Origin: Candidatus Hodarchaeota archaeon
GTDB taxonomy: Archaea; Asgardarchaeota; Heimdallarchaeia; Hodarchaeales; Hodarchaeaceae
NCBI GenBank assembly: GCA_016839815.1
Contig: JAEOTM010000116.1
Span: 1 to 20,477, forward strand
Length of the DNA: 20,477 bases
Direction: 5' to 3'
This document shows, piece after piece, positions 1,751 through 20,477 of the stretch; position 1 is the stretch's first letter, and every line of letters starts with the position of its first letter. Under the pieces are notes generated by a model. The model was not told the DNA's origin. It made no database searches and worked only from the letters and a program-made list of their open reading frames with translations. A program made the translations under genes and the position numbers.

Positions 1751-1877
1751 AGAAATACCTTTTTCCAGTTATAATGAGTCATAACGATTAATCAATTTTT
1801 GTGCTAATGCATAATTTCCCAGTTTGTAATTATCGATTATAACATAAGATCTTTTGATTCAAATTATTCTTCATTTA

Positions 1878-2570: not shown

Positions 2571-2619
2571 TTGAGAAAGTATTTATTCTTCCTTTAGGTT
2601 TTTTTGGTCGAAACTTAGG

Positions 2620-3591: not shown

Positions 3592-3624
3592 TTCTCCAAA
3601 AGGATGAATTTTGGTGGAAAACTC

Positions 3625-4281
3625 ATGGATCTAGATACACTTCTCCGAAAAATCTTCTTTATTGTGTTTTTCTATGTTATTTACTATAATCTGGTATTTA
3701 TTATCTTTAATCCTGATATCTTCCAGGATATTGTATACATTGTTTATCTCAGCATTTTATACCTAGCAGGAATTATTGATACATTCTTACGACCTTTAGA
3801 AAAAGAACAAAAGGAAGAAGGACATTACGTCAAGTTTATAGTGTTTTTATTTTTAGTAAATCCTTTTCTTTTTGTGCTAGCAATTGAAGAGAATAATATA
3901 TTATTTACTACTCGTATAGAGATTCTATCTTGGGTTGGTTTGGTTATTTACTTACTTGCAGCACTTGTTGTTGTAATGGCAAGGGTAAATTTAGGAAAAC
4001 AGGCTACTGGTATCCTTGTAGTTAGGGAAGATCATGAATTAATTACTTCAGGATTGTACAAATTTCTAAGACATCCCATGTATTCAGGTAGTTTACTCGG
4101 AATTATTGGATTTGCGTTTGTAAGTCAATCAATAGTTATCTCTTTGATATCATTCATTCTTTACTTTTGGATATTTAAAGAACGATTAAAATATGAGGAG
4201 AGTCTTCTTGAGGAAGCCTTTGGAGAGAAATACTTGAAGTATAAGGAGTCATCATATCGATTAATACCCTTCTTATACTAA
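3625..4281 (+). CDS. Isoprenylcysteine carboxyl methyltransferase (ICMT/Ste14) family membrane methyltransferase (alternative start 3604)
   Basis: VREDHELITSGLYKFLRHPMYSG and EESLLEEAFGEKYLKYKESSYRLIPFLY; about 5-6 TM helices. GGTGG SD-like site precedes ATG3625. Confidence 0.88.
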   Translation: MDLDTLLRKIFFIVFFYVIYYNLVFIIFNPDIFQDIVYIVYLSILYLAGIIDTFLRPLEKEQKEEGHYVKFIVFLFLVNPFLFVLAIEENNILFTTRIEILSWVGLVIYLLAALVVVMARVNLGKQATGILVVREDHELITSGLYKFLRHPMYSGSLLGIIGFAFVSQSIVISLISFILYFWIFKERLKYEESLLEEAFGEKYLKYKESSYRLIPFLY

Positions 4282-4319: not shown

Positions 4320-5879
4320 TTACTTTGATTTCAACCGTTCCTCAATTTCTCTTGATGTTCTAGTTATTGATAAGCCCCCCAGTGCGGTACACTTTAATTC
4401 GTGAGCAATACTTCGTCCAACTTGATCCATTGCTTCAATTACCTCATCGAGAGGAATAACCACATCATAATCAGCTAATGCCATATTTGCACAGGCTAAT
4501 GCATTACTGGCAGCCATAACATTTTTACCTAAACATGGTACTTCTACTCTATTTGCTACGGGATCACAAACCATCCCAAAACTATTTTGCAGAGCCATTG
4601 AGGCCGCGTCAATAACCTGTTTGATAGTTCCATTTTTCAGAGTTACTAGTCCTGCAGCTGCCATACCAGAGGCTGATCCGCATTCGGCTTGGCATCCTCC
4701 AATTTCGGCTGAAAAAGTTCCCTTTTGAGAAATAAAAACTCCTATCATACCTGCTGCAAACATTGCTTGAGTTAATTCAGTATTGGATAGATTCATTACA
4801 CTTGTTGCCCCTATTAATGCTCCTGGAATAGTACCACACGCACCAGCAGTTGGAGCTGCAACAATAACTCCCAATGAACTTTTAATTTCCATCATTGCTG
4901 TAATACATACAATTATTTGATTTAGAATACCACCATCAAGTAGATTTTTGCGTTCAAGTTGAGTTTTGAACTTTCCTGATTGAAAACCAAGGATACGATC
5001 TGCGAAATTTGTCCCTTTTATTCCAGTCTGTATCGATTCTCGCATAATGCTTATTATCTTCTTCATTTTGGTGAAAACTTCTTCAAACGAAATATTACCT
5101 CGCATGCTTTCATAGTGAACTGCTAATTTCCACAAATCCCATTGTTTGTCTTTATTATACTGCAACATATCTTCGCAAGTAGTAAATGGAACTTTCACAT
5201 CATTACTAGAAAGGATTGGTAAAACAGGATCAATCATTTTGATTATAGCTTTAGGAAATTTTTGTTTTAGAGTTGTTAGGGACTCTTTTTCCAAGAAATG
5301 TTTTCCTTTGATTTCAATAAACTTCTGTTTTGTTTCTATAGTGCCTATAGAATCGCTAAGAAATTCTTTACTCTGTAAAAATTCTAAAAGATTATTCCCT
5401 TCGGTATAGATCAGAGTTTCATAACAATCTCCAATCATTGAAACTTCCATATGATCTATTTCAATGATCTCTATCATTCCCCCACCAGTAGATATAGCTA
5501 CTATTTCGTGCAGTTCATTCTCGTTTTTAAGAGTCAATTTATAGGTATTGGGATGCTTTACCTCTATATTATTGATTTTTATTTGGATTTCAAGACCTGC
5601 TTCCTTTACAGCATCTTTATATTCTGGTAATCTCTCGTCATCGGCCTCCCATCCTAGAAATCCTGCAAACAGGCCCATATCAGATCCTTGACTCTCATGT
5701 GTTGTCGCTAGGGAGCCTTTTGGATCGAATTCTACTAATACCTCTCTTATATTACCATCCATCAAATCCCGTGCCATTCTTCCTATCCGAACAGAGGCTG
5801 CACTGTGAGAGCTAGATGGACCTCTCATTATCGGGCCCAAAACATCATTAAAAATACTTGGATATTTATTTCCACCCAT
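4320..5879 (-). CDS. sdaA: Fe-S-dependent L-serine dehydratase, fused beta (SdaAB-like) and alpha (SdaAA-like) subunits
   Basis: Beta part: GPIMRGPSSSHSAA, GSLATTH..QGSD, HPNT, STGGG. Alpha part: IVAAPTAGACG, GGCQAECG, GMVCDPVANRVEVPC (Fe-S Cys ligands), IPLDEVI..M..VG, CTALGGL. Confidence 0.93.
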   Translation of the reverse strand: MGGNKYPSIFNDVLGPIMRGPSSSHSAASVRIGRMARDLMDGNIREVLVEFDPKGSLATTHESQGSDMGLFAGFLGWEADDERLPEYKDAVKEAGLEIQIKINNIEVKHPNTYKLTLKNENELHEIVAISTGGGMIEIIEIDHMEVSMIGDCYETLIYTEGNNLLEFLQSKEFLSDSIGTIETKQKFIEIKGKHFLEKESLTTLKQKFPKAIIKMIDPVLPILSSNDVKVPFTTCEDMLQYNKDKQWDLWKLAVHYESMRGNISFEEVFTKMKKIISIMRESIQTGIKGTNFADRILGFQSGKFKTQLERKNLLDGGILNQIIVCITAMMEIKSSLGVIVAAPTAGACGTIPGALIGATSVMNLSNTELTQAMFAAGMIGVFISQKGTFSAEIGGCQAECGSASGMAAAGLVTLKNGTIKQVIDAASMALQNSFGMVCDPVANRVEVPCLGKNVMAASNALACANMALADYDVVIPLDEVIEAMDQVGRSIAHELKCTALGGLSITRTSREIEERLKSK

Positions 5880-5972: not shown

Positions 5973-6006
5973 TATAAAATAATCTTGACTTTAACAATGT
6001 TCGGTG
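5973..6006 (+). promoter_or_regulatory. Putative TATA box (TATAAAA) and GGTG SD for the small ORF starting at 6015
   Basis: tataaaa at 5973-5979; ggtg at 6003-6006, 8 nt before ATG6015. Confidence 0.45.
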
Positions 6007-6014
6007 TAAAATCA

Positions 6015-6269
6015 ATGGCTAAATCTCCAGAAAAGCTTTACGATAAATGGATTAATGCTCGATTTGATGGAAAAATGGTTGTGTCTGTTACTCAAAAGGA
6101 TCAATATAAGAATTTAGGTTTTTCAGTTATTAATGGACGTTCTTATTCTACGAAACTTGGTCCAGCCATGAGTATCCAATTAGGGCCGAATGATCTTCAA
6201 GAACTGATTGAGGTACTTCAGGAAGTTCAATCAACGTATATTCCTCCGCTCAAGAAGGAAATAGATTAA
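6015..6269 (+). CDS. Small (84 aa) hypothetical protein, possible PC4/PUR-like single-stranded nucleic-acid-binding fold
   Basis: ATG6015 has an SD; predicted beta-strands followed by SIQLGPNDLQELIEVLQEV (strand then amphipathic helix). The stop overlaps the convergent gene's stop (TTAA 6266-6269). Confidence 0.7.
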   Translation: MAKSPEKLYDKWINARFDGKMVVSVTQKDQYKNLGFSVINGRSYSTKLGPAMSIQLGPNDLQELIEVLQEVQSTYIPPLKKEID

Positions 6270-7537
6270 TTTTCCCAGTCCTTCCTTTTTTTCTTACTTA
6301 CGATCAAGATTGGAACAACAATTAGGAGAAATATCGCTTCAAATCCAGTAATATTGCCTGACGAGGCGGGTTGTCGTGTTATCGATACATAGTATTTCCC
6401 ATTTGTACCAAAATCATATTCTTCACTAATTTCTCCAGATTGGTAGTACCCTTTGTCTTTATGAAATTTAATTTTATAGATCAACCGTAAAGTTCCTCTA
6501 TTAGGATTATCATACCAACTACCAGAAGAAGAGTGGTAGGTAAACCTCTCATAATCAGTAATATCGATTTCAAAATCAAGGGTGATACTATTGTCTGTAA
6601 ACTCTTCTTTAAGTATTTTGCAATAATCGAGAAAGCTGGAATGACGAAAATTAAGTCTCTGTCTGGCAAAGAAAGTATAGGTTTCACTATAACTAGAGGG
6701 GTCATAAGTGGTAGCATAATTTGTATCGGGATCAGCATTTGGAACCCAAGATTGTCCATCCCATCTGGAAAATTCATTGGGATACCAAGAATATCCAAAC
6801 CATTCAGGGGTGAATTTGTATAACTCTTCAGAAATTACCTCTAAAGAATACGCCACATTTCGAAAGAACAATTGATAGCGTATATCATTCCAAGTTTGCT
6901 TAGTACGATTCCAAAAAATTATTGGCAGTTTTGAAGCATTGGATTGTGTATAAGCATGCCACTGTGTTTCAATCTGGGAAATATATGCCTTAGGTTGTTT
7001 AACAAAAAAAGGAATAGATAAGAATATGTCAAAGCTATCTAAATGACTTTCCTCATACTTATCGAAAAAACCGTATATGTCATGAGATGACTCATTCCAC
7101 CCCTGATAGTTCTCTCCACATGTTTCATTATCCCAAGTAGGCTGTTCAAACCAGGATAAATGAAAATAGGGATATCTTGAATCAATCGTCCTATTAAATT
7201 GATAATTGTATGTATATTCATATTTCCCTGACACCCTACGAAAAGTCCAAGACCCTGCGTAAGGTTGAGGATCATAAATACCATAAATGTCTGAATATAT
7301 GTGGTAGGTATAGTTTACAAAGGTTGAGTTAACTCCTGTAATGTAGTAATTTTCCACGTGAGTAGCTTCCTCATCAAATCTCATTCCTATGTCATTAGTA
7401 AACTGCCATTGATTTACCTGTCTGATATTTATCTTATCTCCAATCTGTAGAGGACTTGCTGATACTTTAAATAGGGGGATTATTTGTAAAATTAAAAGTA
7501 TGGTTAAGATCAAGTAAAACCTTTGTTTAAAATTCAT
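6266..7537 (-). CDS. Secreted/cell-surface protein with signal peptide and PGF-CTERM-like C-terminal anchor
   Basis: MNFKQRFYLILTILLILQIIPLFKVSA signal peptide; aromatic-rich body; ends ITGFEAIFLLIVVPILIVSKKKRKDWEN. Confidence 0.85.
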   Translation of the reverse strand: MNFKQRFYLILTILLILQIIPLFKVSASPLQIGDKINIRQVNQWQFTNDIGMRFDEEATHVENYYITGVNSTFVNYTYHIYSDIYGIYDPQPYAGSWTFRRVSGKYEYTYNYQFNRTIDSRYPYFHLSWFEQPTWDNETCGENYQGWNESSHDIYGFFDKYEESHLDSFDIFLSIPFFVKQPKAYISQIETQWHAYTQSNASKLPIIFWNRTKQTWNDIRYQLFFRNVAYSLEVISEELYKFTPEWFGYSWYPNEFSRWDGQSWVPNADPDTNYATTYDPSSYSETYTFFARQRLNFRHSSFLDYCKILKEEFTDNSITLDFEIDITDYERFTYHSSSGSWYDNPNRGTLRLIYKIKFHKDKGYYQSGEISEEYDFGTNGKYYVSITRQPASSGNITGFEAIFLLIVVPILIVSKKKRKDWEN

Positions 7538-7544
7538 TTTTCTC

Positions 7545-7550
7545 TCACCT
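7545..7550 (-). promoter_or_regulatory. Archaeal Shine-Dalgarno AGGTGA
   Basis: tcacct on + reads AGGTGA on -, 7 nt upstream of ATG7537. Confidence 0.65.
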
Positions 7551-7658
7551 ACTCTCTAAAAAATCTTGAAGCTCATATTCTATTTCAGAATCTGACTCGT
7601 TCTCCTCACATAGACATAATTACTTTTTTATGCTTTTTGCTCGAGTAATCCTCTTAGA

Positions 7659-8777
7659 ATGAAAATTAAAGATTTTTTACTTGAACGGTTTTTTGCTAAG
7701 TACGAATTTGAAATCCCCTATTTACTATGTGCATCTGATTGTGAAGCGTTTTCTATAGAAGAGATTTTACAATTAGAGAAGGGAGCTGAGGAACGGTTTA
7801 AAGCTCTCAAGCTGGGTTATACTGATTCGCAGGGAAGTCCTGAACTACGGGAAGCTATTGCCACACAATACAAAATAATCTCCGAAAAGGATGTATTAGC
7901 ATTTTCGGGAGCGGAAGAAGGGATTTTTGCTTTTATGAATGTATTATTAGATCCAGGTGACCATATTATTGTTCAGTTTCCAGCCTATCAATCTTTATTT
8001 GAAATTGCTGAAGCTATAGGATGTCAAGTTACAAAGTGGCCAATGGATCCAAAAAATAATTGGAATTTAGATTTAAATATATTAAAGTCTGCAATTAGAG
8101 AGAATACAAAAGCAATAGTCGTTAATTTTCCTCATAATCCGACAGGTTCACTTATATCCTCTCGAGATTTTCTTAAAATTGTTAATATCGCTCGAGAGTA
8201 CGGTCTTTATTTATTTTCAGATGAGGTCTATCGTTTCTTAGAATATAAAGAATCATCCCGCTTACCGCCTGCGGTTGATCTGTATGAGAAAGCAATCTCT
8301 CTAGGGGTAATGTCAAAGTCATTTGGATTGGCAGGATTAAGATTAGGATGGATAGCAACGAAAGATCAGGATCTATTAGGCAATCTTGCCAAGTTTAAAG
8401 ATTATACTACGATCTGTAACAGTATAGCAAGTGAATTCTTAGCTTCAGTTGCCTTAAGACATTCTCAAGAATTAGTTCAAAGAAACCTAGCAATTATTAA
8501 ATCTAATTTGAAGCACTTAGACGAGTTTTTTACTAAAAATTCGTATATGGAGTGGATAAAGCCTCAAGCTGGACCTATTGGGTTTCCAAAGTTAACAAAC
8601 GATATATCCTCAGAGAAATTTTGTACGGAGTTGCTGACTACGGCCGGTGTATTGCTTCTACCTAGTTCAGCATTTTTGTTTGATGATAAGCACTTCAGAA
8701 TAGGATTTGGACGGGAAAACATGCCAGAGGCCCTTTCTCAATTAGAAACTCATTTGCGAAGAATAGGTAAATTATAA
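7659..8777 (+). CDS. PLP-dependent class I/II aminotransferase (VioD/capreomycidine-synthase-like subfamily)
   Basis: LGYTDSQGSPELREAIA, NFPHNPTG, FSDEVY, PLP-lysine motif MSKSFGLAGLRLGW, FRIGFG. Confidence 0.92.
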   Translation: MKIKDFLLERFFAKYEFEIPYLLCASDCEAFSIEEILQLEKGAEERFKALKLGYTDSQGSPELREAIATQYKIISEKDVLAFSGAEEGIFAFMNVLLDPGDHIIVQFPAYQSLFEIAEAIGCQVTKWPMDPKNNWNLDLNILKSAIRENTKAIVVNFPHNPTGSLISSRDFLKIVNIAREYGLYLFSDEVYRFLEYKESSRLPPAVDLYEKAISLGVMSKSFGLAGLRLGWIATKDQDLLGNLAKFKDYTTICNSIASEFLASVALRHSQELVQRNLAIIKSNLKHLDEFFTKNSYMEWIKPQAGPIGFPKLTNDISSEKFCTELLTTAGVLLLPSSAFLFDDKHFRIGFGRENMPEALSQLETHLRRIGKL

Positions 8778-8778
8778 A

Positions 8779-11706
8779 TTATCTCCGATATTTCTTCTGC
8801 CTTTTCCAAATAAATAGCAAAGCTATTACCAGTATGAGTTCAAAGATTATGGCTGGAAGATTAATCTGCAGAGTTCTCAAAAAATCGAAAAAATCCTCGG
8901 TTTTACGTATTCTAAAAGTTAGATCTGATTCATCTTGAACGTTGAAACCTAATGGATTAGTAGCAACTACACGGATGAGGTAGGAATTGCCTTGCATTTC
9001 GGTGGCATTAATTTTCCATTTGTATCGAATTGAATTTTCTCCTTCCCATGAAATAAGATGTCTAACATCTGAGCTAATAAATATCCACGAATCTCCTTCA
9101 TTCGAGGAATAATAAATATCATAATGTAATTCTTGATTGAATGTATCATTTGCAGCAGATATTTCAATAGTATAATCATCTGTAATCCTCTCTCCACCAT
9201 TTGGTGACAAGATAACTGGAGGTATTATATGATTAGGGGATTGAGCTGGATTATCTTCATAATTCCCATCAATAGGGTCGGTTGAATTAGGAAACCAAAA
9301 ATTTTGAGAGAAAATATTGCTCAGTCCTTGATCAATACCTTGTTTCATACTTGATGAAGAGAAGAGATTATTATCTGCAAAGTCATTATTCTGAATAATA
9401 TTCGCTTCGCTGTACGAATTTAAGAATAATCCCCAATAACGATTTTCAAACAAAATGTTCTGTTCAATTACACATTCAGATGATGTAGACATGGGTAAAC
9501 CGTTTATCATGACCCCATAAACATTGTCGTGTAGAAAATTGTGAAATATGCTAATTAAATGGCATTGTTGCAGAAATATTCCAGCATGCATAAACCCATA
9601 AATGTTGTTATTCTTAATGTGACTGCGAGACGATGATACTAGGGATAATCCATTCTGATCTTCATTCTTTCCGATTAGAGTATTATTGTTGATAATAATA
9701 TTTGTACTATTTATTACTTGAATTGTTGATCTAGAATCTCTAATTACGTTATTCCTGATAATAATATTCCGAGTATGATTTAAGTATATCCCAATCTCTG
9801 CTCCAATTAATGTACAATTCTGAATAACAACATTGAGTGTTGTATTGACAATCTCAATTAATAGTGATGAAAAAGGTGAGCGCGGCGGTGGCCGTCTACT
9901 TACTATTGAAAAGCCTTCTATAATATATGGATCTCCCTCTGTTCCATTTCCTGGTAAACCTACCATATTTGCATAAGAAATAAATTCTTGGTCGCTTGGG
10001 AATTGTAGAATAACGTTTGTAAACTCTATAATTGAATACTCTTTTGTCGCATAAACATTTTGGAGGTGTGATAACCTTTCTCCATTAAAGTCATACAAAT
10101 CATACAAAGATACTTCTCGTATTTCAAAAGATAGATTGCGATATAGAGTGGAAAGAGTTGTTAAGGTAAATGGAATCGATACATTATGGAATCCTTGAGC
10201 TAGGTCGACTGAGATTTCCATATTTTCCTCAAACTGGTAATTTGTTCTACTACTGAGGTTGATAACGAGTTTGTAGAATCCTAGTTGTATTACATTTAAT
10301 TCTACAATAATAATGAGTTCATCATAATCCCCGCCCTTGATCACACTACTGTTCAGGAGATAATCAAAGAACCGACCGGTAAGAACAGCTTTAGTAGGAT
10401 TAAACTCGTTATATATATATACACGAGTAGTATATGCGTTAAAAATCTCGTATATATCTTCTCCCTCTCCATCCTCAACCAGAATTTGGATAATTGTAAA
10501 ATTGGTTGCCGTCTGGAATGAATGAATCCCTCTAATAGTAAAATTGAAAGATACATTGTAAAGACCAACAAGGTAACTTTGAGTAATTGTTTCTGTATTA
10601 GTAAAGACGTAAACGTCAGAATTTGATTTTACGTGAACAGAAATTGAATAGTTACCTGATACTGATGAGTTAACTTCTATTTGCACTATTAGTTCGTTGA
10701 AAAGTCCATCGGAATCCGTATCATTGCCAAAATCCAGATATTTTCCTGTTACAATAAGATTAGGGACGTCAAATTCAGTAAAGTGATATTCTCGAGTAGT
10801 ATAGCTAGGTGAGGTTTCATCAATTAATGCATTGTTTGAATTGTACAGTTCAATTATCTGAATATTAAAAGTAATATTGATGAGTTCATAGTATCTCACA
10901 GCTGGATTGTACAGAAGCGGAATGCTGTGTTTGCCTTCAGAAAATTCCATACTGTTATTTCCCCACTTTAGAAATGGAAAATTTTCGGAATTACTTCGCA
11001 GAAGAGCTCTTAACTTATATGTACCAGCTTTTGTGATGTTGATTTCTACAAAGATCACTAAATTGTTGAATTTATTATTTCCGTCTGTATCATTTCCGTT
11101 ATCTGCAAATAAGTGGGTAAGAAAGGCACTAGGTGGATCACAATCAGAGTAACTATATAATTCGGTTGTGTACCAATCAATGGCCTTCCAAAACACATAG
11201 GCCGCTACAGTGAGGGAGTAAATACTGACCTCTGTAATGACGTAGGTAGTATTAATTTTACGAGAATAGACATTCCTGATTGGAAAAGTGAAAGAGATAT
11301 TTTGAATTCCTGATGAGAATTCATCAAAGACTTCGTAGTACTCCAGATATTCATAGCTAGTATGATTATCCTCTAATCGTAAACGAAATTCAAAACTACC
11401 CGCCTCTAGGATATCAAATTCCGCAGTTATCTGTATAAAATTGTATAAACCATCAAGATCTGTATCAATTCCCTGATCAGAGAACACTCCCATAGCGGTA
11501 ACTAAATATGTAGTCTTGGGTGAAAGATTTGACGGAAGAGAATTATTGTGTAAGACTGTGGTGGGAGAATTTCTTTCTTCTTTTTCGTCTGAAGGAATAA
11601 TTTGATGTTCTGAATATTTATTAACTAAAGGAGCCAAAGATGTTGAAAAAAATCCAAGATTGATGAGAATTATGAGTAAGATGGCTTTTGACTGGATATT
11701 TTTCAT
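8779..11706 (-). CDS. Large membrane-anchored surface glycoprotein: four beta-rich repeats, NosD/PbH1 right-handed beta-helix, Ig-like domain, C-terminal TM
   Basis: Signal peptide; repeated G(N/I)DTDxDG..N.L motifs; GNGTEGDPYIIE followed by GIYL/NIIIRNN-type beta-helix repeats; SPNGGE Ig-like domain; TM then WKRQKKYRR; more than 25 N-x-S/T sequons. Confidence 0.88.
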   Translation of the reverse strand: MKNIQSKAILLIILINLGFFSTSLAPLVNKYSEHQIIPSDEKEERNSPTTVLHNNSLPSNLSPKTTYLVTAMGVFSDQGIDTDLDGLYNFIQITAEFDILEAGSFEFRLRLEDNHTSYEYLEYYEVFDEFSSGIQNISFTFPIRNVYSRKINTTYVITEVSIYSLTVAAYVFWKAIDWYTTELYSYSDCDPPSAFLTHLFADNGNDTDGNNKFNNLVIFVEINITKAGTYKLRALLRSNSENFPFLKWGNNSMEFSEGKHSIPLLYNPAVRYYELINITFNIQIIELYNSNNALIDETSPSYTTREYHFTEFDVPNLIVTGKYLDFGNDTDSDGLFNELIVQIEVNSSVSGNYSISVHVKSNSDVYVFTNTETITQSYLVGLYNVSFNFTIRGIHSFQTATNFTIIQILVEDGEGEDIYEIFNAYTTRVYIYNEFNPTKAVLTGRFFDYLLNSSVIKGGDYDELIIIVELNVIQLGFYKLVINLSSRTNYQFEENMEISVDLAQGFHNVSIPFTLTTLSTLYRNLSFEIREVSLYDLYDFNGERLSHLQNVYATKEYSIIEFTNVILQFPSDQEFISYANMVGLPGNGTEGDPYIIEGFSIVSRRPPPRSPFSSLLIEIVNTTLNVVIQNCTLIGAEIGIYLNHTRNIIIRNNVIRDSRSTIQVINSTNIIINNNTLIGKNEDQNGLSLVSSSRSHIKNNNIYGFMHAGIFLQQCHLISIFHNFLHDNVYGVMINGLPMSTSSECVIEQNILFENRYWGLFLNSYSEANIIQNNDFADNNLFSSSSMKQGIDQGLSNIFSQNFWFPNSTDPIDGNYEDNPAQSPNHIIPPVILSPNGGERITDDYTIEISAANDTFNQELHYDIYYSSNEGDSWIFISSDVRHLISWEGENSIRYKWKINATEMQGNSYLIRVVATNPLGFNVQDESDLTFRIRKTEDFFDFLRTLQINLPAIIFELILVIALLFIWKRQKKYRR
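10018..11490 (-). repeat. Four tandem ~123-aa protein repeats, three with DxDxDG-type motifs
   Basis: Repeat heads: GIDTDLDGLYNFI (~11472), GNDTDGNNKFNNL (~11097), GNDTDSDGLFNEL (~10728), degenerate GGDYDEL (~10336). Repeat tails: YTTELYSYSDC, YTTREYHFTEF, YTTRVYIYNEF, YATKEYSIIEF. Confidence 0.85.
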
Positions 11707-11944
11707 ACTCTATTTCTCAAAACTCGTTTTTTTGATGGAAAACTGAATAGAATTCCTAAAATAAGAGATAAAAGAAGTATAAAGAGGATAATTGTTGTAG
11801 AAGTTTTCATCTTACACACTTATCTTGCATTCTGAATAAATTAGTATTCTTATTTTACTATATTAATTGATACTTTGAAGAAAGAATGATTATAAGATAT
11901 AAATCAATCTTCGTCCCCGTCCCACGATAGGTAGTTTCAATGAT

Positions 11945-12664
11945 ATGACAATTGCCATCTCCCTTAAATTGGCTAAAGAGACGAGATTTTTTAATAAAAG
12001 CGTTGTGAATCGTGTTTACAAAGAAATCCAAACGACAGCTGATCTAATAAATGCTACAGGGGGATCAAGTGAGAAAAAAGTATATCATTCGCTTTTACCT
12101 CGTTATAGTAAAAAATCTACGGGACAAATTATTGCTGGAGGACGACATACTCCATTTCTTTATTATTTTCCTGTTTCTGACCTCACCTCCTTTGTTATTA
12201 AGCCCTATCATTCCAAAGTCAGAGAGATAGCAAATCATTATGTAGCAGTCGAAGATATTAATGCTATATACCGCAATCACAAGTTTGAATTCGGAAATAA
12301 CGAGATAAAGATAAGATTTTCTGATGTTTTTGGATTTGGTACTTTTACAGTTGAAGAAAAGGTTATTCCTTTCATTATCCAAAGGTTTAGTACTGGTACT
12401 AAGTTGACCGAAGTCAAAACGAACCAATCAGGATGTATTATAGCTTTTCTGCCAAGAATTTTCAAGTATTTGGCTAAAGAAGGTATTATTGTTGACCCCT
12501 ATAACCAGAATTGGTTCGTTCATGGATTTTCACTCGATCAACGCAGTCTAGATTGCGAACTATTGGAATATGTGGATCTTGCTTACATGCACTCCCTAGA
12601 TACCAATCATAAGGTGAAAGCAGTTTTAGAGTCGTTAAAACCATTGGACATTCAAGATTCGTAA
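11945..12664 (+). CDS. Hypothetical protein with protein-kinase-like motifs (minimal atypical kinase, RIO/Bud32-like layout)
   Basis: In kinase order: IIAGGRHT (Gly loop), FVIKP (beta3 Lys), REIAN (alphaC Glu), FIIQRFSTGTKL (hinge), GIIVDPYNQNWFV (DxxxxN catalytic loop), YVDL (DFG-equivalent). Confidence 0.65.
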   Translation: MTIAISLKLAKETRFFNKSVVNRVYKEIQTTADLINATGGSSEKKVYHSLLPRYSKKSTGQIIAGGRHTPFLYYFPVSDLTSFVIKPYHSKVREIANHYVAVEDINAIYRNHKFEFGNNEIKIRFSDVFGFGTFTVEEKVIPFIIQRFSTGTKLTEVKTNQSGCIIAFLPRIFKYLAKEGIIVDPYNQNWFVHGFSLDQRSLDCELLEYVDLAYMHSLDTNHKVKAVLESLKPLDIQDS

Positions 12665-13441: not shown

Positions 13442-14917
13442 TTAGAAGTATTCAGACGGATCTCGCATTCCACGTCTCTTGAAATCTTTTCGGGCAAGGA
13501 CCTTAAATTCATCACGTAACTCCGCTGGGAGTCGATTGGGTTTCTTAAAACCTTCAATTGAATCTTTAGCATAAGAATAGATAAAAGATCGGAAAGCAAC
13601 CTTCATTGGCATAGTAACTACACTGTATGGCAGAGATCCGAGAAACACAAATATAACGGCAAAAACAAGACCATAAGCTAATTCCTGTGTGGCGGCAAAT
13701 CCTAAACTAAATCCAACTCCAAGCCATAGTAATGAATTGACTATTGCGAAGATAAAGGTAGTTAATCCAAACCCAGTTTCGCCAACTAGGACATCGACAA
13801 GCGCTCCCCAAGTAGTTTTGGCTGAATCTTTAATAGAATCACTGAGACCTTTTTTGTTCTGTACAATACTGACCAACGTGAAGTAATTCAAAAACATCCA
13901 GATCGCACCAAGAATTGAAATGATAATCGATGCTAATGCTGCAAAGATTAAACCACCAATAGCTGCACCTGCATTTCCTCGCCCTCGCGAGCGAGTTGCT
14001 TGTCCACGGGTAGCTCCTGTGAAAATCTGCATAATTATCTTCACAGAGGCCATAGCGAACGCAAATTTAAGGATAACTGGAAAAACTTGACGTACATCTT
14101 TCATAGCTGATCCTAGGTCAGGATCTAATCCTCGGTACCAATCACTTGCGTAAGATATTACTCCAGCCGAGAGACTATAGTAAACACCGAGATATACAAT
14201 TAAATAGAAATACTCAAAGATTATGGCAAGAATGAGTCCTGGATAGGATAACTCTGTCTCACCCATAGCATTAGTCACTTCAAACATGGAGTATATATTG
14301 AGGAATCCAAAGATCATGAAGAATCCTGTTACAATTGAATAGAGGCCCAGTATAAGTGGCATAGCAAGGACTGCTTTCTCATCAAGCACAAGTTGTGCTG
14401 AAAACTCAACAAACTTTCCACTCCGAGCAATTACTCTGAACTTCCAGATTACGAAGGCTAAGAGCAGAACTCCGAAACCAGCAATGAACATTCCCATCAT
14501 TGACGCACCTATTTGATCCTCTGGCATAAGAATTCCCCCACCAATCATAAGGACCCCAATGATTATCATTAGGACAGGGAAAAAGATGGATACAAATATT
14601 GTGACCTGCTTAGCTACTTTACTCATGATCCATAGGATAACATATGCGAGAATTAAGGTTAGAACTAAAAACACAACAATAAATACGATGAGTAGGGGTA
14701 GAAAATCCATTGTAATTGGGACTAATAGTTCGAACGCTTCAGAAAGTTGGGCTAAAACCTCTTCATTCTCGGGATCTGTAGTAAAATCAGTAATAAAACT
14801 GTAGAACGAGACTGCCCCAAAAGAGTACAAGGCAACCGCAACTAACAAATATAACCATGTGGGCGTATTTGAAAAGTTTGTTTTAATATTGGGCTTTTTA
14901 TAATTTGATACACTCAT
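13442..14917 (-). CDS. Polytopic membrane protein, choline-transporter-like (CTL/SLC44/Pns1-like; related to DUF6159)
   Basis: About 10 hydrophobic segments. CTL-like landmarks: WKFRVIARSGKFVEFSAQLV..AVLAMP, SAGVISYASDWYRG, FLNYFTLVSIVQNKKGLSDSIKDSAKTTWG, LVGETGFG. Confidence 0.6.
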   Translation of the reverse strand: MSVSNYKKPNIKTNFSNTPTWLYLLVAVALYSFGAVSFYSFITDFTTDPENEEVLAQLSEAFELLVPITMDFLPLLIVFIVVFLVLTLILAYVILWIMSKVAKQVTIFVSIFFPVLMIIIGVLMIGGGILMPEDQIGASMMGMFIAGFGVLLLAFVIWKFRVIARSGKFVEFSAQLVLDEKAVLAMPLILGLYSIVTGFFMIFGFLNIYSMFEVTNAMGETELSYPGLILAIIFEYFYLIVYLGVYYSLSAGVISYASDWYRGLDPDLGSAMKDVRQVFPVILKFAFAMASVKIIMQIFTGATRGQATRSRGRGNAGAAIGGLIFAALASIIISILGAIWMFLNYFTLVSIVQNKKGLSDSIKDSAKTTWGALVDVLVGETGFGLTTFIFAIVNSLLWLGVGFSLGFAATQELAYGLVFAVIFVFLGSLPYSVVTMPMKVAFRSFIYSYAKDSIEGFKKPNRLPAELRDEFKVLARKDFKRRGMRDPSEYF

Positions 14918-15397: not shown

Positions 15398-15427
15398 GAT
15401 AAAGCGACTCTTTTTTTGGCTTATTTG

Positions 15428-15447
15428 ATTACAAACGCATTTGTAAT
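15428..15447. promoter_or_regulatory. Perfect 8-bp inverted repeat ATTACAAA-cgca-TTTGTAAT, candidate operator in the divergent promoter region
   Basis: Seen directly between the RAM gene and the 15568 operon. Confidence 0.45.
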
Positions 15448-15567
15448 TCTATGGGATTAAAAAATGTTTGTGTGCCTCTTTTTTTTTCCTCCTATAATAA
15501 TAAAAAGGAGTGAGCTGCAGCATTGTCCGTACAGATTTCGCTCTAATTTTATCTGGAGAATTTCAGA

Positions 15568-16851
15568 ATGTCTGATTTACGCCATAAACTAGAGATTCCA
15601 GAAGAGAATCTCAAAGAAATTAATGATTTTTTACTGAATCCTGATAATCCACTCATAAATGATCTCTTACAAGTCATAGATAAATATGGAGGAGTGGATG
15701 AAATAAATAAGAAAGCTAATGAGGCTGGCAAGTTAGAGAATTTGCTAACTCGACTTCAAAAGAAACAACCTGATTATGTTCAAGACTTGGAATGGTTAAC
15801 GGAAAAGCGTGATAAGGAAGCCTTTATTAGTCTATCAGAATATCGTAGACGGGTTTTGGGAGACAAATTATCAGAAATTCAATTTAATGACGATTTTGCT
15901 GTTACTCTTGAACTTTCCGCATGTCAGTACTTTCCTTTCTTCATCGAAGGAGCTAATTTAGCCTTAGAAAGGGAAACGTTGTTACCAGGACGCATTATCC
16001 GTGTACGAAAAATGAAGGAGCAAGAAAATGACGGCGATCTTTTAGCTATGTCTGCAGCAATGAAAATCATTGGTGCTTCTTACGTTGAAACACTTGATAC
16101 AAAAGGAACTGCTCCTGGAGAGGATGGTGCCCCAGTTAATGTCCATTTAGGAGGTCCACCGACTATTACCGGTTATTTCGGAGGAGTAGGTCAACCTAAT
16201 GATTTCGCCTTAAAATGGATTGATGAATACCTTTACTACTATACGAATTACGGTGTTCAACAGGTCTTAAACATTAATCTTGGTACAATCCTCCTGGGCT
16301 ATTTCATCCATAAATTGGGAATCAATAATGAATTCAAGATTTCTGTCTTTGTAGGGAATGATAATCCGTTCTCTTGTTTCTGGACGTTACTTGCAGCTAA
16401 GCTGTTTGCTCGAGAAGATGGTACTAGCCCCTTGATTGGATTTAATCTTTCTAACTCTGTAAACAACCAGACACTTGAACTAAGTGCCTATATTCGAGAT
16501 AATTTTGGTTTTGAAGATGTAGTCAGATTAGAGCATCATATCACTGAGACATGGAAGAGTATTGTTCGTCAACCATATGACCGTAGAGCAGAATTGGTTG
16601 AACTCGCCCCCAATGTCAAAAACATCAGTGCAAAACATGAAGGAGGGAATGTCGATGTGGAATCACAGCGTGATTATCCAACTGATATTCTCGATTATTT
16701 CCGTGATAAATCAGAGATTATTAACGCAGGTCATTGGAACTTTTTAAAACAAAATTATTTCGATCGCTTGGATGCTGTCAACTCCACTGCCTATGCACTG
16801 ACAAAAAATGGATCAAGCTTCATCGCAGCTCGTCATCTTCATCATAGATAA
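15568..16851 (+). CDS. Uncharacterised soluble enzyme-like protein (427 aa)
   Basis: Long ORF with GGAG SD. Motif-like blocks: LELSACQYFP, PGRIIRVRKMKEQE, YVETLDTKGT, NVHLGGPPTITGYFGGVGQPN, KISVFVGNDN, GFNLSNSVN, RLEHHITE, SAKHEGG. No family recognised. Confidence 0.85.
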   Translation: MSDLRHKLEIPEENLKEINDFLLNPDNPLINDLLQVIDKYGGVDEINKKANEAGKLENLLTRLQKKQPDYVQDLEWLTEKRDKEAFISLSEYRRRVLGDKLSEIQFNDDFAVTLELSACQYFPFFIEGANLALERETLLPGRIIRVRKMKEQENDGDLLAMSAAMKIIGASYVETLDTKGTAPGEDGAPVNVHLGGPPTITGYFGGVGQPNDFALKWIDEYLYYYTNYGVQQVLNINLGTILLGYFIHKLGINNEFKISVFVGNDNPFSCFWTLLAAKLFAREDGTSPLIGFNLSNSVNNQTLELSAYIRDNFGFEDVVRLEHHITETWKSIVRQPYDRRAELVELAPNVKNISAKHEGGNVDVESQRDYPTDILDYFRDKSEIINAGHWNFLKQNYFDRLDAVNSTAYALTKNGSSFIAARHLHHR

Positions 16852-16876
16852 TAGTATGAATGGATTGTGGCAGACT

Positions 16877-18040
16877 ATGAATGAAGAACTTGACTTCGAG
16901 AGTCTTAGAACAGGTGCTGGCATTTTTGAAGTATTATCAAAAGCTAAAGCACTTGAACGAGAAGGTAAAACAATTTTACACTTCGAAATTGGCCAACCCG
17001 ATTTTCATACACCAAGTCACGTAAAGGATGCAGCTAAGCAAGCGTTAGACGATAATTTCACTGGATATGTTCCTGCCGCAGGAATTCGGGGCCTTCGTGA
17101 AGCGATTCAAGATGAAATTGAACAAACTAGAGGATTTAAGCCATCACTTGAGCAAATACTAATTACTCCTGGAGCCAATCCTGGGATCTATTTCACCTTG
17201 CGAGCAATAGTCAATAAGCATGCCGATGAAGTAATTTTTTCTGATCCCAGTTTTCCTACATATGGGGCTGTACTAAATTATTTGGGTTGTGCAAAAAAGC
17301 CTATTCCATTGAAAGAAGAGAATAAATTTCGCTTAGATCCTGTTGATATCGAAGCAAACATTTCAAAAAATACGAAAGTCGTGATTATTAATTCTCCAAT
17401 GAATCCCACTGGTTCTGTAATGAAAGAGGATGAAATTAATCGAGTGGCTGAATTAGCTGAGGAACACGAGTTTTATCTCTTAACTGATGAAATCTACTCA
17501 AAAATGACCTATGATCAAAAGTTCCATTCACCAAGTACTCGAGATTGCACGAAAGAACGAACAGTTATATTGGATGGTTTTTCCAAAGCCTATAATATGA
17601 CTGGTTGGAGATTGGGATATGCTGTGGCTCCTGAACCAATTATGGATCGAATGAGTTTACTCATCTCGACAACAGTTTCGTGTGTCGCATCTTTCATACA
17701 AAGAGCAGCCATTCCAGCTTTAACAGGACCACAAACTGATCTACATAATAATATGAAAGCTTTTCGATTACGACGCGATACTATTGTTGAAGGATTGAAT
17801 AGTATCCCTGGTTTTTCATGCTTGACTCCTCAGGGAGCATTCTATACCTTTCCCAATATCAAACAGACTGGTATGTCTTCCAAAGAATTAGCTGATTTTC
17901 TTCTTACAGAAGCAGGAGTAGCTTGTTTACCAGGTACAATTTTTGGTGAACATGGAGAAGGATATCTTAGATTTTCTTACGCTACTGATGTATCAATAAT
18001 TCAACAGGCAATAGTACAAGTCAAAGATGCATTAGCATAA
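16877..18040 (+). CDS. aspC: Class I PLP aminotransferase, aspartate/aromatic type (start 16877 or 16856; 16808 overlaps the upstream gene)
   Basis: HFEIGQPDF.TP, GY.PAAGI..LREAI, INSPMNPTG, DEIY, GFSKAYNMTGWRLGY, PQGAFY.FP, GEGYLRFSYA. Substrate specificity is inferred. Confidence 0.88.
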   Translation: MNEELDFESLRTGAGIFEVLSKAKALEREGKTILHFEIGQPDFHTPSHVKDAAKQALDDNFTGYVPAAGIRGLREAIQDEIEQTRGFKPSLEQILITPGANPGIYFTLRAIVNKHADEVIFSDPSFPTYGAVLNYLGCAKKPIPLKEENKFRLDPVDIEANISKNTKVVIINSPMNPTGSVMKEDEINRVAELAEEHEFYLLTDEIYSKMTYDQKFHSPSTRDCTKERTVILDGFSKAYNMTGWRLGYAVAPEPIMDRMSLLISTTVSCVASFIQRAAIPALTGPQTDLHNNMKAFRLRRDTIVEGLNSIPGFSCLTPQGAFYTFPNIKQTGMSSKELADFLLTEAGVACLPGTIFGEHGEGYLRFSYATDVSIIQQAIVQVKDALA

Positions 18041-18084
18041 GTTGACTATTATTTTACAAATATTACTGAATAGAGGCAAATAAA

Positions 18085-19128
18085 ATGAGTATAACGAGAA
18101 TTGCGTTTATAGGATTCGGTGTAGTCGGACAAGGACTTACTGAAATCTTATTAGAACAAAAAATAGAACTTTCTGAACAGTACGGATTCGAGTTTGAGGT
18201 TGTAGCGATTTCGGACACTATGAAGGGATCTGTATATGATAAGAACGGGCTAGATCTCAAAAAAATACTTGAGATCGTAAAGGCTACTGGGAAGATTGAG
18301 AGTTACCCTGAAGGAATTAAGGGCTGGGATAGTCAGAAAACCATTGTAGAAACAAATGCTAACTTAATTGTAGAAGTATCGTGGACTGATATCAAAACAG
18401 GAGAACCAGCGATATCACATGTGAAATCCGCCATTAGCTGTTACAAACATATTGTGATGACAAACAAAGGACCCATAGCTCTTGCTGTACGCGACCTTTT
18501 GAAATTGGCGAAAAATAATGGTGTCCAAATGCGTTTTGAAGGGACAGTATTAAGTGGGACTCCCGCAATAAACCTCGGGTTGAACAATTTAGCCGGAGTA
18601 AAAATATCAAAGGTGGCTGGGATTTGTAATGGAACCACTAATTACATTCTTACTGAAATGGAGAAGGGATTAGATTATGCAAGTGCATTAAAACAAGCTC
18701 AAGAATTAGGTTATGCAGAAGCCGATCCAACTGCAGATGTTGAAGGATTTGACGCCTTAGGGAAGATAGTCATACTTGCTAATGTTGTTATGAACGCAAA
18801 TTTAACGAAAGAGGAAGTATCATGCCAGGGAATTACGCAAATTTCTCCCCAGGATATCGAAACAGCAAAAAAGGAGGGGAAACGTTGGAAACTCATTGCT
18901 AGCGCGGAAGTTCAATCCGATGGGTTTGTAAAAGCGTCTGTGAAACCAGAAAAGTTACCTTTAGAACATCCCCTCTCAGCAGTGAGTGGTCCAATTAATG
19001 CCTTGACCTACACTACCAAACATTTAGGGGATGTAACAATTATTGGTCCTGGAGCAGGTCGGGCGGCTACAGGGTACGCCCTTTTAACGGATATTTTAGA
19101 TATTCATCGTACAATCTCACGACCATAA
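18085..19128 (+). CDS. hom: Homoserine dehydrogenase (no ACT domain)
   Basis: GFGVVG Rossmann motif, HIVMTNKGP, FEGTVLSGTP, GICNGTTNYIL, AQELGYAEADPTADVEGFDALGK, GPGAG..ATG. Confidence 0.96.
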   Translation: MSITRIAFIGFGVVGQGLTEILLEQKIELSEQYGFEFEVVAISDTMKGSVYDKNGLDLKKILEIVKATGKIESYPEGIKGWDSQKTIVETNANLIVEVSWTDIKTGEPAISHVKSAISCYKHIVMTNKGPIALAVRDLLKLAKNNGVQMRFEGTVLSGTPAINLGLNNLAGVKISKVAGICNGTTNYILTEMEKGLDYASALKQAQELGYAEADPTADVEGFDALGKIVILANVVMNANLTKEEVSCQGITQISPQDIETAKKEGKRWKLIASAEVQSDGFVKASVKPEKLPLEHPLSAVSGPINALTYTTKHLGDVTIIGPGAGRAATGYALLTDILDIHRTISRP

Positions 19129-19152
19129 ATCTCGACTCAAAGAGGAAGTAAA

Positions 19153-20477
19153 ATGGGTTATTTGGAAAAGTATCTAGAACTAGACCTAAGTGCAGAAAAA
19201 ATTACGGAACAAAACTTTGATAAATCATATGGTAAGAAATGGATTGGAGGGAAAGGACTTGGTGCAAAAATCCTGTATGACTCCCTCTCCCCAGATACTC
19301 ATCCTCTTAGTCCTGAGAATGTGTTATTGTTTATGACAGGCCCACTTACGGGGACTGCAGTTCAAACGTCAGGACGCTGGACAGTTGTTACGAAGTCTCC
19401 TCATACGGGGATATTTTTAGATAGTCATGTTGGAGGAAAGTTCGGTCATAGACTTAAACGAGCAGGGTATGACTATATTTTGATTAAGGGGAAAGCTTCT
19501 GAGCCAAAATATCTAGAGGTCACCTCTGAACGTGTAGATCTGCATACAGCTACTGAACTTTGGGGAAAAGGAACATACGAAACTGAATCTCTTCTCAAAC
19601 AGAAGCACAAGGGTGTTGAAGTAAGTGCAATCGGACCTGCAGGAGAAAACCTTGTTTCATTTGCGAATATTGTTACTGATAGAACTCATACAGCAGGTCG
19701 AGGAGGAGCGGGTGCAGTTATGGGTTCAAAGAATCTGAAAGCCATTATAGCAACAGGTTCTGAACAAATCGCTGCAGATAATCCTGACCGATTTAGAGAA
19801 TTAACACGTATATTCACCAAGAAAGTCCGTAATAATCCTGGAGTCAAACGTAGACACGAAATTGGCACGGTTATGTGGGTAAAGATGGCAAATGAGGCTG
19901 GATTTCTTCCTACGCATAATTTTCAATCAGGAGTATTTGATTATGCAGATCAGATTTCAGGAGAGCGGATGCGTGATGAATATGTTGTTGGGCATACAGC
20001 TTGTTATCGGTGTAGTATTGCCTGTGGTAAAACTACCAAATATGAACAGGGAAAGTACGCAGGACTCGAAGTTGATGGTCCTGAATATGAGACATCAGCA
20101 CTTCTAGGTGCAAGCTGTGGTCTAAAAGACCTCGGAGCAATCGCAAAAGCAAATGAAATCTGTGATGATCTGGGTATCGATACAATAACTGCAGGGGGAA
20201 CAATCGCGTTTGCTATGGAAGCTACTGAGAAAGGCCTTCTGAGACAAACTGACGTCAAATCTCTTGAATTTGGAAATGATGATGCTGTTCATGAGATGTT
20301 GCGACAGATTGCTAATCGAAACGGAATTGGGGATTTCTTCTCCCAAGGTTCATTATCTGCTGCCAATAAACTCGGTCATGATAGTAGAGCGTATGCTATC
20401 CAAGTGAAAGGACTGGAGTTAGCAGGTGTGGAACCACGTGGTTCGTTTGGAATGGCCCTTGCATATTCTACATCGGA
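19153..20477 (+). CDS. aor: Aldehyde:ferredoxin oxidoreductase family (tungsten-pterin/4Fe-4S), 3'-truncated; absent from the ORF track
   Basis: Hand-translated with no stop to the window end: MGYLEKYLELDLS..WIGGKGLG..TGPLTG..SGRWTVVTKSPHTG..DSHVGGKF..KRAGYD..IGPAGENLV..AGRGGAGAVMGSKNLKAI..CYRCSIACGK..GPEYET..CDDLGIDTI..VKGLE..EPRG. GAGGA SD at 19142-19146. Confidence 0.95.
   Translation, partial: MGYLEKYLELDLSAEKITEQNFDKSYGKKWIGGKGLGAKILYDSLSPDTHPLSPENVLLFMTGPLTGTAVQTSGRWTVVTKSPHTGIFLDSHVGGKFGHRLKRAGYDYILIKGKASEPKYLEVTSERVDLHTATELWGKGTYETESLLKQKHKGVEVSAIGPAGENLVSFANIVTDRTHTAGRGGAGAVMGSKNLKAIIATGSEQIAADNPDRFRELTRIFTKKVRNNPGVKRRHEIGTVMWVKMANEAGFLPTHNFQSGVFDYADQISGERMRDEYVVGHTACYRCSIACGKTTKYEQGKYAGLEVDGPEYETSALLGASCGLKDLGAIAKANEICDDLGIDTITAGGTIAFAMEATEKGLLRQTDVKSLEFGNDDAVHEMLRQIANRNGIGDFFSQGSLSAANKLGHDSRAYAIQVKGLELAGVEPRGSFGMALAYSTS

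Follow-up and report, generated by a model that had tools for sequence, protein, structure and literature searches.

Why does an Asgard archaeal genome in which neither aspartokinase nor aspartate-semialdehyde dehydrogenase (Asd) was detected keep a homoserine dehydrogenase (Hom), and what does that enzyme do beside a tungsten aldehyde:ferredoxin oxidoreductase (AOR)? The question is raised by positions 15568-20477 of a contig from a Candidatus Hodarchaeota archaeon, where an orphan protein encoded by the first open reading frame (ORF1), a class I aminotransferase (AT), Hom and the AOR follow one another on the forward (+) strand. The window analysed is the whole of this contig (C69, 20,477 bp); the source genome comprises 4.24 Mb in 206 contigs at 89.5% completeness, and its nearest named relatives are metagenome-assembled genomes (MAGs) labelled Heimdallarchaeota or Hodarchaeota, e.g. 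Candidatus Hodarchaeum mangrovi. Families, genomes, loci and contigs are labelled f, G, L and C, respectively, with G000 as the source genome. With slightly better than even confidence, the operon is read here as an anaerobic, ferredoxin-linked catabolic pathway from homoserine to aspartate, with ORF1 and the aminotransferase acting upstream to deliver homoserine; gene content, synteny, phyletic pattern and membership in families and clades are what was observed, and from these the substrates, the flux direction and the function of ORF1 are inferred.

Aspartokinase and Asd were searched for with profiles (TIGR00657 and TIGR00978, respectively) across 400 Asgard genomes, 83 of which make up the class. 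In the source genome the top aspartokinase match reached 28 bits, under the cut-off, and Asd gave no match. Asd was present in 2/21 genomes of f1, 2/31 of f4, 3/12 of f7, 11/12 of f6 and 127/135 of f20. Aspartokinase was over the cut-off in 14 of the 83 class genomes, essentially those with Asd, and the genomes without both enzymes included near-complete members of f1 and f4. Hom was present in 17/21 f1 and 23/31 f4 genomes. Pfam scans of ORFs of at least 80 aa found no aspartokinase, asd, thrB or thrC in the window, in agreement with a first-pass annotation made from the letters alone, which had noted their absence beside hom. That annotation had also suggested looking for lysC, asd, thrB and thrC in carriers of the cluster, and the outcome was consistent with its reading: aspartokinase and Asd were nearly absent across the lineage, and ThrB was missing in most carriers.

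The genes are closely spaced, with 25 nt between ORF1 and the aminotransferase, 44 nt between the aminotransferase and Hom and 24 nt between Hom and the AOR; the first gap shrinks to 4 nt if the aminotransferase begins at M17 (16856). On reading the sequence, no T-run of 6 or more was found within any of the three gaps. The ORF coordinates thus bear out the description of four co-directional genes with short gaps, divergent from a gene for a RAM-domain protein. The AOR is cut by the end of C69; the last 25 nt of C69 match the end of contig C31 exactly in reverse complement, and joining the two contigs gave an intact AOR gene of 599 aa.

The order ORF1-AT-Hom-AOR recurred in two Heimdall-class families, f1 (that of the source genome) and f4, with insertions in some loci, and a collection-wide Hom search returned it again in nine named MAGs of Heimdall/Hodarchaeota (L123-131, L168). 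In three Thermoplasmatota MAGs (L132-134) the same genes were arranged as ORF1-Hom-AOR-AT, with identities of 62-64, 59-60, 45-47 and 53-55%, and were flanked by succinyl-CoA synthetase on one side and a four-subunit 2-oxoacid:ferredoxin oxidoreductase on the other, a fermentative context. Such surroundings, like the Opp peptide transporter upstream in L008, are in line with catabolism. Adjacency of Hom and AOR extended to f1, f3, f4 and f11 among the Asgard families, to Thermoplasmatota and to Bacteroidales. Within f4, the seven genomes without ORF1 (G013-17, G037, G039) were among the eight without Hom, two of them single-contig. Because the gene set is conserved across two archaeal phyla, the four-gene linkage is more than chance. 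The neighbourhood comparison proposed in the first-pass annotation therefore came out in its favour, with linkage in f1 and f4 and a reordered form in Thermoplasmatota.

Two variant loci carried further genes. In G010 (f3, L113), a 713-aa protein with a Cas12f/TnpB-type domain and two small reverse-strand ORFs lay between the aminotransferase and Hom. In G069 (f1, L112), the usual place of the AOR after Hom was taken by an Asgard eukaryote-like GTPase of 744 aa, with a GTPase domain of Gtr1/RagA type.

Hom passed both PF00742 (207 bits, cut-off 22.9) and the PRK06270 model NF004912 (437 bits, cut-off 373). The homoserine dehydrogenase signature was present in its translation as AQELGYAEADPTADVEGFDALGK, and the pattern A-x3-G-x-x-x2-D-P-x2-D-V-x-G-x-D-x3-K, of PROSITE type, is taken by us to be the catalytic signature. 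The dinucleotide motif of Hom is GFGVVG (GxGxxG), and the GxGxxN variant, reported for the class of the Arthrobacter nicotinovorans enzyme AnHSD and associated with NAD specificity, was not matched by the window Hom.

A tree of 68 Hom sequences was built, and a sequence was labelled by its neighbour within 2.5 kb where that was an aldehyde dehydrogenase (ALDH, PF00171) or an AOR. The window Hom fell in a 51-member clade (SH-aLRT 99), of which 25 members were AOR-linked and 17 ALDH-linked (42/51), the partner lying just downstream of Hom in nearly every clade locus. Asgard Homs encoded beside aspartokinase or ThrC were placed outside this clade and were only 38-42% identical. ALDH-linked members included Priestia, Planococcus, Calditrichaceae, Latescibacterota and the Heimdall-class sister family f2, in which G078 and G079 have the ALDH 26 nt behind Hom; AOR-linked members included Bacteroidales, Thermoplasmatota and Asgard f1, f3, f4 and f11. 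The label switched between AOR and ALDH at least 5-7 times on the tree, and near-identical Homs of Bacteroidota differed in their partner (AOR in L142, ALDH in L163). In the bacterial loci examined, a PF01053 enzyme of gamma-lyase type stood directly 5' of Hom, and such loci often also encode peptidases, an Lrp/AsnC regulator or a permease for amino acids. On a Rhizobium leguminosarum plasmid (L177, NZ_CP071629.1), Hom (48.7% identical to the window Hom), the ALDH next to it, a dapA-like gene, aspartate ammonia-lyase, homoserine kinase and Lrp/AsnC are annotated in a row; a DapA-like gene thus also accompanies bacterial homoserine catabolism.

Judged by neighbours and clade, that is by sequence criteria, the window Hom would belong to a catabolic, oxidation-favouring class. 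Enzymes of the PRK06270 class have been assayed in two bacteria only (PMC9533460; bioRxiv 10.1101/2021.02.09.430557). One of them, AnHSD, is NAD-specific, oxidises homoserine with no reverse activity and has an ALDH neighbour (bioRxiv 10.1101/2021.02.09.430557). AnHSD and the window Hom both pass NF004912, are without an ACT domain and have an aldehyde-oxidising neighbour.

Both AOR domains were over their cut-offs (PF02730, 261 bits; PF01314, 267 bits). The joined protein aligned end to end with its best PDB sequence matches, the Pyrococcus furiosus AOR (1aor) and 9mqx (455-469 bits), and shared with them the two-domain AFOR architecture, the CxxCxxxC motif (C284, C287 and C291, at 284-291) with C489, GPEYE at 309 and GGCH at 444. 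These are presumably the [4Fe-4S] cysteine ligands and the Glu and His active-site motifs, assigned here from the P. furiosus enzyme. By sequence the protein is nearer to AOR proper (9mqx, 1aor) than to FOR, GAPOR or WOR5. The cluster AORs of f1 and f4 formed one clade (support 100/100), the sister of which was the Hom-linked AOR of G006 (97/96). The clade was not found in four Hom-less genomes, where the best AOR matches were 39-42% identical and grouped with other paralogues of the source genome, where about 10 AOR paralogues occur.

As AOR and Hom appear functionally coupled, aspartate-4-semialdehyde (ASA) is the most plausible substrate of this AOR. An activity on ASA had been suggested in the first-pass annotation, and it gained ground from the Hom-AOR adjacency, the replacement of AOR by ALDH and the separate AOR clade. 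From the linkage and the AOR/ALDH displacement, the enzyme is proposed to be an aspartate-semialdehyde:ferredoxin oxidoreductase. In the literature library searched, no paper joined an AOR to ASA or to Hom, and most members of the tungsten AOR family are, to our knowledge, without an assigned physiological substrate. AOR proper accepts many different amino-acid-derived aldehydes, whereas the window AOR, in its Hom-tied clade, would act on a single charged amino-semialdehyde. AORs are reversible in principle, and their usual physiological direction is aldehyde oxidation. The acid/aldehyde couple lies at about -580 mV; ferredoxin is therefore a strongly favourable acceptor for aldehyde oxidation, which can pull an unfavourable alcohol oxidation.

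The aminotransferase ORF opens at 16808, and its start is likely at 16877 (M24), where the product would have 387 aa, close to the 386 aa of the orthologues. The gene co-clustered with the others in f1, f4 and Thermoplasmatota. The pyridoxal phosphate (PLP)-lysine motif reads GFSKAYNMTGWRLGY. All NCBIfam equivalogs were under their cut-offs, the best being GntC, PRK07682 and archaeal aspartate aminotransferase (AspAT); the AspAT models scored 307 against a cut-off of 550 bits (NF041091), 304 against 624 (NF006229) and 272 against 617 (NF004769). The earlier naming of this gene as AspAT is borne out for the class I (PF00155) membership and is tentative for the substrate. It is proposed here to be an aminotransferase of 4-hydroxy-2-oxobutanoate (HOB)/homoserine, or alternatively of aspartate/oxaloacetate.

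ORF1 belongs to a large family, with at least 8000 sequence matches, all at E <= 0.001; the best 120 of these at least 8000 matches were 72-91% identical. It was carried by 228 of the 400 Asgard genomes, mostly in single copy. Searches of Pfam, NCBIfam and the PDB (phmmer) brought no match by which it could be identified. Against a set of 1.84 billion representatives, 520 matches were obtained, nearly all of them fragments of its own family, and no named family was reached; a language-model feature search returned only unrelated clusters (scores 0.84-0.86) and was discarded. The AlphaFold2 model (pLDDT 88) was therefore compared by structure. The best Foldseek matches were class II aldolases (E ~1e-4, template modelling (TM) score 0.30-0.46, ~10% identity), and the best named Atlas match was a U32 cluster (TM 0.57/0.77). 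PF01136 (peptidase U32) was absent from ORF1 in Pfam scans with E up to 10, and a PF01136 search of the whole source genome, ORF1 included, gave no match. The first ~100 residues of ORF1 form a helical domain that sets it apart from U32 proteins and class II metal aldolases. UbiU/V proteins have a four-Cys Fe-S site; such a site seems unlikely in ORF1, because only one Cys is nearly invariant.

More was learned from the neighbours of ORF1, which were of four types. The first is the AT-Hom-AOR set (f1, f3, f4 and Thermoplasmatota). The second (f7, f20) is a 495-aa fusion of a DapA-like domain (PF00701) with a formaldehyde-activating enzyme (Fae, PF08714), hereafter the DHDPS-Fae fusion, mostly 20-45 nt downstream; ten f7 and f20 loci were examined, and in nine of them it was directly 3' of the ORF1 homologue, the distance being ~1.5 kb in the remaining one (L069). 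The third, in one bacterium, is a PanB-like hydroxymethyltransferase. The fourth (f31) is an S-component of energy-coupling factor (ECF) type, RibU-like (PF07155), on the same strand and upstream (L072, L074), which hints that a substrate or cofactor of ORF1 is imported. Because HOB can be a substrate of all three, the aldolase-Fae fusion, the PanB-like enzyme and an aminotransferase that feeds Hom, ORF1 probably makes HOB, the C4 precursor of homoserine, as judged from gene context. The 427-aa protein had earlier been expected to supply or consume homoserine; it proved to be a true partner of the cluster, for which the supplying role is probable.

Two other accounts of these genes were rejected. 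The fusion is not the ordinary DapA of its hosts, as the Loki genomes that carry it also hold a separate canonical DapA (324-342 bits, vs 233-248 for the fusion), of which the fusion is a paralogue. A strict pattern in which ORF1 replaces Asd was likewise set aside, since ORF1 (82/135) and Asd (127/135) occur widely together in f20.

The proposed pathway would run as follows. ORF1, a metal-type barrel, would convert an imported or amino-acid-derived C4/C5 compound to HOB, and the aminotransferase would convert HOB and glutamate to homoserine. Hom would then oxidise L-homoserine with NAD(P)+ to L-aspartate-4-semialdehyde, and the AOR would convert ASA, water and oxidised ferredoxin to L-aspartate and reduced ferredoxin. 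The exergonic AOR step would pull the unfavourable alcohol oxidation and stand in for the NAD-dependent ALDH of bacteria, and archaeal ORF1 and AT would together occupy the place of the single bacterial gamma-lyase. In Loki-type genomes and f7, the DapA-like-Fae fusion would instead split HOB into pyruvate and methylene-tetrahydromethanopterin (methylene-H4MPT). In the subclade of the source genome, which has thrB-thrC and neither aspartokinase nor Asd, homoserine may also feed threonine synthesis. It is quite improbable that in this subclade the AOR also runs in reverse, driven by low-potential ferredoxin and pulled by Hom, taking aspartate directly to ASA.

Different chemistry for the first two genes, on a literal reading of the catabolic scheme in the first-pass annotation, was considered. 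ORF1 might free homoserine from a gamma-substituted or acylated precursor, Hom and the AOR would lead from homoserine to aspartate, and a true AspAT would carry aspartate to oxaloacetate. This linear path employs all four genes, bacterial clusters hold one PLP gamma-lyase at the place of ORF1 (and AT) directly 5' of Hom, and the archaeal AspAT model is among the best NCBIfam matches of the aminotransferase (307 bits). We nevertheless regard it as unlikely: the AspAT equivalogs were all far under their cut-offs, as with 307 vs 550 bits, and ORF1 was paired only with the pyruvate-aldolase-like-Fae fusion in Loki-type genomes and f7, and only with the PanB-like enzyme in one bacterium. Those two partners act on 2-oxo acids rather than amino acids, so that an unlinked aminotransferase would be needed there.

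The first-pass annotation had allowed either catabolism, yielding reduced ferredoxin, or an ATP-independent bypass of LysC and Asd, in which the AOR reduces aspartate to ASA and Hom reduces ASA to homoserine. The catabolic half, homoserine to ASA to aspartate, was upheld; the bypass as the main role was not, and is given a low probability. In its favour, the source genome is without aspartokinase over cut-off or Asd, and nearly every f1 and f4 genome likewise has neither; an AOR can in principle work in both directions, and Hom keeps GxGxxG. Moreover, the source genome, G058, G061 and G062 keep adjacent thrB-thrC and so need homoserine. The canonical thrB-thrC pair was, however, found only in this subclade (G000, G058, G061-G064) and in f6. 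Most carriers were without ThrB (0/31 in f4) and without a canonical ThrC. Two further consumers of ASA were rejected: the DapA-type lysine route for the source genome and G066, where DHDPS/DapA was not found, and the DKFP-type aromatic pathway for the source genome, where DHQS-II was not found. In most carriers the products of Hom are thus left without an evident biosynthetic consumer, which speaks against biosynthesis by such a bypass in carriers at large. In addition, the Hom class is oxidative in the bacteria where it was assayed, and within its clade Hom is also found beside ALDHs, enzymes that in published pathways take ASA to aspartate by oxidation, with repeated ALDH/AOR swaps. A bypass would also leave ORF1 and the aminotransferase without a role, and the homoserine for ThrB can come via ORF1 and AT.

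The identity of the alcohol itself was weighed in the same way. Hom and its aldehyde-oxidising partner might act on another hydroxy compound, with the logic of alcohol to aldehyde to acid retained. Three observations point in this direction: assays of the PRK06270 class are limited to two bacteria; the top model for the ALDH beside Hom was lactaldehyde dehydrogenase (554 bits, cut-off 650); and bacterial homologues of ORF1 lie among sugar and sugar-acid genes (IlvD/Edd, Dak, PfkB, ROK). A substrate other than homoserine is nonetheless distinctly improbable, since Hom scores over the cut-off of a curated equivalog and has the signature of a homoserine dehydrogenase, and since genes for aspartate ammonia-lyase and homoserine kinase are also part of the Rhizobium cluster. 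The assayed bacterial enzyme, AnHSD, is nearly specific for L-homoserine among the alcohols tested (bioRxiv 10.1101/2021.02.09.430557).

An AOR that groups with generic peptide-fermentation AORs was to count against the first-pass reading, and this applies in part, as the nearest sequences of known structure, 1aor and 9mqx, are AOR proper; yet in the AOR phylogeny, which the first-pass annotation had proposed as a check, the cluster AORs form a separate, Hom-linked clade within Asgard genomes. Generic peptide fermentation, in which the aminotransferase and a broad-specificity AOR (one of about 10 paralogues) process bulk amino acids, from 2-oxo acid via aldehyde to acid, and Hom and ORF1 are mere neighbours, would also suit the Opp peptide transporter found upstream of the cluster in L008, but is highly improbable given four genes that stay together across two phyla even in a different order, an AOR clade absent from the four Hom-less genomes checked, and ORF1 and Hom gained or lost together in f4.

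The favoured pathway from homoserine to aspartate was then compared with known systems. Three purified enzymes of Pseudomonas canavaninivorans, a homoserine dehydrogenase, an aldehyde dehydrogenase and an aspartate ammonia-lyase, take homoserine via ASA and aspartate to fumarate, and the route starts with a PLP gamma-lyase that frees homoserine from canavanine (PMC9533460). This canavanine route (HD plus AH/AC; P. canavaninivorans, Rhizobiales) resembles the cluster in the chemistry proposed here, in which homoserine becomes ASA and then aspartate and neither a kinase nor an acyl-phosphate takes part, and in its gene logic of a homoserine-releasing enzyme, Hom and an aldehyde oxidiser, often with an Lrp/AsnC-type regulator. 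It differs in that an NAD-dependent ALDH takes the place of the tungsten, ferredoxin-dependent AOR, and a PF01053 gamma-lyase that of ORF1 and the class I aminotransferase as the entry. Unlike the canavanine-route bacteria, the hosts here are archaea that live strictly anaerobically and have no canonical aspartate pathway, and the archaeal cluster is without aspartate ammonia-lyase.

For ectoine degradation in Halomonas elongata, the ALDH-type enzyme DoeC was proposed to convert ASA to aspartate from knockout phenotypes and homology (PMC3187862). Like the proposed AOR, DoeC would turn ASA into aspartate with no phosphorylation step, in a catabolic pathway under an AsnC/Lrp regulator, but it belongs to another enzyme family with another cofactor, and its ASA comes from diaminobutyrate, not homoserine. 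The upstream half has a counterpart in the homoserine cycle/HOB shunt engineered in Escherichia coli, where a HOB aldolase and a HOB aminotransferase are used and ordinary aminotransferases aminate HOB; in the same review HOB is termed a non-native metabolite (PMC8879981). The proposed intermediates are shared, with pyruvate and formaldehyde interconverted with HOB, and HOB with homoserine. The synthetic cycle is engineered, whereas the natural clusters described here (ORF1 with DHDPS-Fae, the PanB-like enzyme or AT-Hom-AOR) would point to native HOB metabolism. The ALDH form of the Hom pair is already known experimentally; the AOR version in archaea would be a variant of a known pathway and not a new kind of system.

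Coordinates of the cluster, its flanks and the other loci mentioned are collected in Table 1. The AT-rich intergenic region 5' of ORF1 is presumed to be a promoter region serving both the operon and the RAM gene. RAM is the ligand-binding domain of Lrp/AsnC regulators. The RAM gene was 96-97% identical and in the same position in the four closest genomes, and was not upstream of the cluster in the other f1 and f4 genomes; its linkage was therefore rejected as a general feature of the cluster. The order membrane protein, RAM, ORF1 was kept only in G058, G061, G062 and G063, and we infer a putative role in the pathway for the 491-aa membrane protein. Downstream of the AOR on C31 lie a 227-aa ORF and then a convergent cysteinyl-tRNA synthetase; in other f1 genomes a PatB-family C-S lyase follows the AOR instead of the 227-aa ORF (TIGR04350, 482 bits in L008).

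Table 1. Positions of the features discussed, in window coordinates unless a locus is named
Feature	Position	Strand	Evidence or remark
Choline/ethanolamine-kinase-like ORF and two PEMT/ICMT-type membrane methyltransferases	737-4281	both	Kinase-like ORF, E 9e-4
Fused alpha/beta iron-sulfur L-serine dehydratase	4320-5879	-	
Second class I/II aminotransferase	7659-8777	+	
975-aa protein	8779-11706	-	NosD/right-handed beta-helix repeats
Membrane protein, multi-pass, 491 aa, possible transporter	13442..14917	-	Weak PF04515, E 6e-5, under gathering score
Stand-alone RAM protein, 79 aa	15158..15397	-	PF01037 E 1.2e-10; 170 nt upstream of ORF1, divergent
Intergenic region, AT-rich, 170 nt, divergent	15398..15567	.	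TATAATAATAAAAA ~60 nt 5' of ORF1 ATG
ORF1, 427 aa	15568..16851	+	N-terminal helical domain and (beta/alpha)8 barrel
Class I (fold type I) PLP aminotransferase, 387 aa	16877..18040	+	PF00155 E 1.8e-65
Hom, 347 aa, PRK06270 class, without ACT domain	18085..19128	+	PF00742 E 2e-61
Tungsten AOR, residues 1-441 of 599, rest on C31	19153..20477	+	PF02730 E 8.8e-78; PF01314 E 3.1e-79
227-aa ORF after AOR	L079 (G000:C31) 6212-6895	-	Pfam: no match
DHDPS-Fae fusion, 495 aa	L076:9308-10795 (Loki-type MAG); also L062-L070		TIGR00674 239 bits vs cut-off 206
ECF-type S-component, RibU-like	L072:10473-11039; L074:2302-2844		PF07155
713-aa Cas12f/TnpB-type-domain protein and two small ORFs	L113:5405-7546		Small ORFs on reverse strand
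744-aa Gtr1/RagA-type GTPase-domain protein	L112:6171-8405		
Rhizobium leguminosarum plasmid cluster	L177 (NZ_CP071629.1) 6001-12096		Annotation

Elsewhere in the window, the kinase-like ORF and the two membrane methyltransferases, together with the 491-aa protein (a sub-threshold, choline-transporter-like PF04515 match), may form a phospholipid head-group module with weak, eukaryote-flavoured matches. The 975-aa beta-helix protein is probably secreted or on the cell surface. The L-serine dehydratase and the second aminotransferase fit an amino-acid-fermenting lifestyle.

If the proposed pathway is correct, this AOR clade would gain one specific substrate, L-aspartate semialdehyde, and a clear pathway role, and the exchange of AOR and ALDH beside the same dehydrogenase would apparently track the oxygen lifestyle of the host. 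The orphan ORF1 family would be tied to C4 hydroxy-acid metabolism, with support for HOB as a natural intermediate. The bacterial route from homoserine through ASA to aspartate would be extended to Asgard archaea, Thermoplasmatota and anaerobic Bacteroidales. It would also explain why a "biosynthetic" hom is kept in many Heimdall-class genomes without the rest of the pathway, which is relevant to the metabolic reconstruction of the closest archaeal relatives of eukaryotes.

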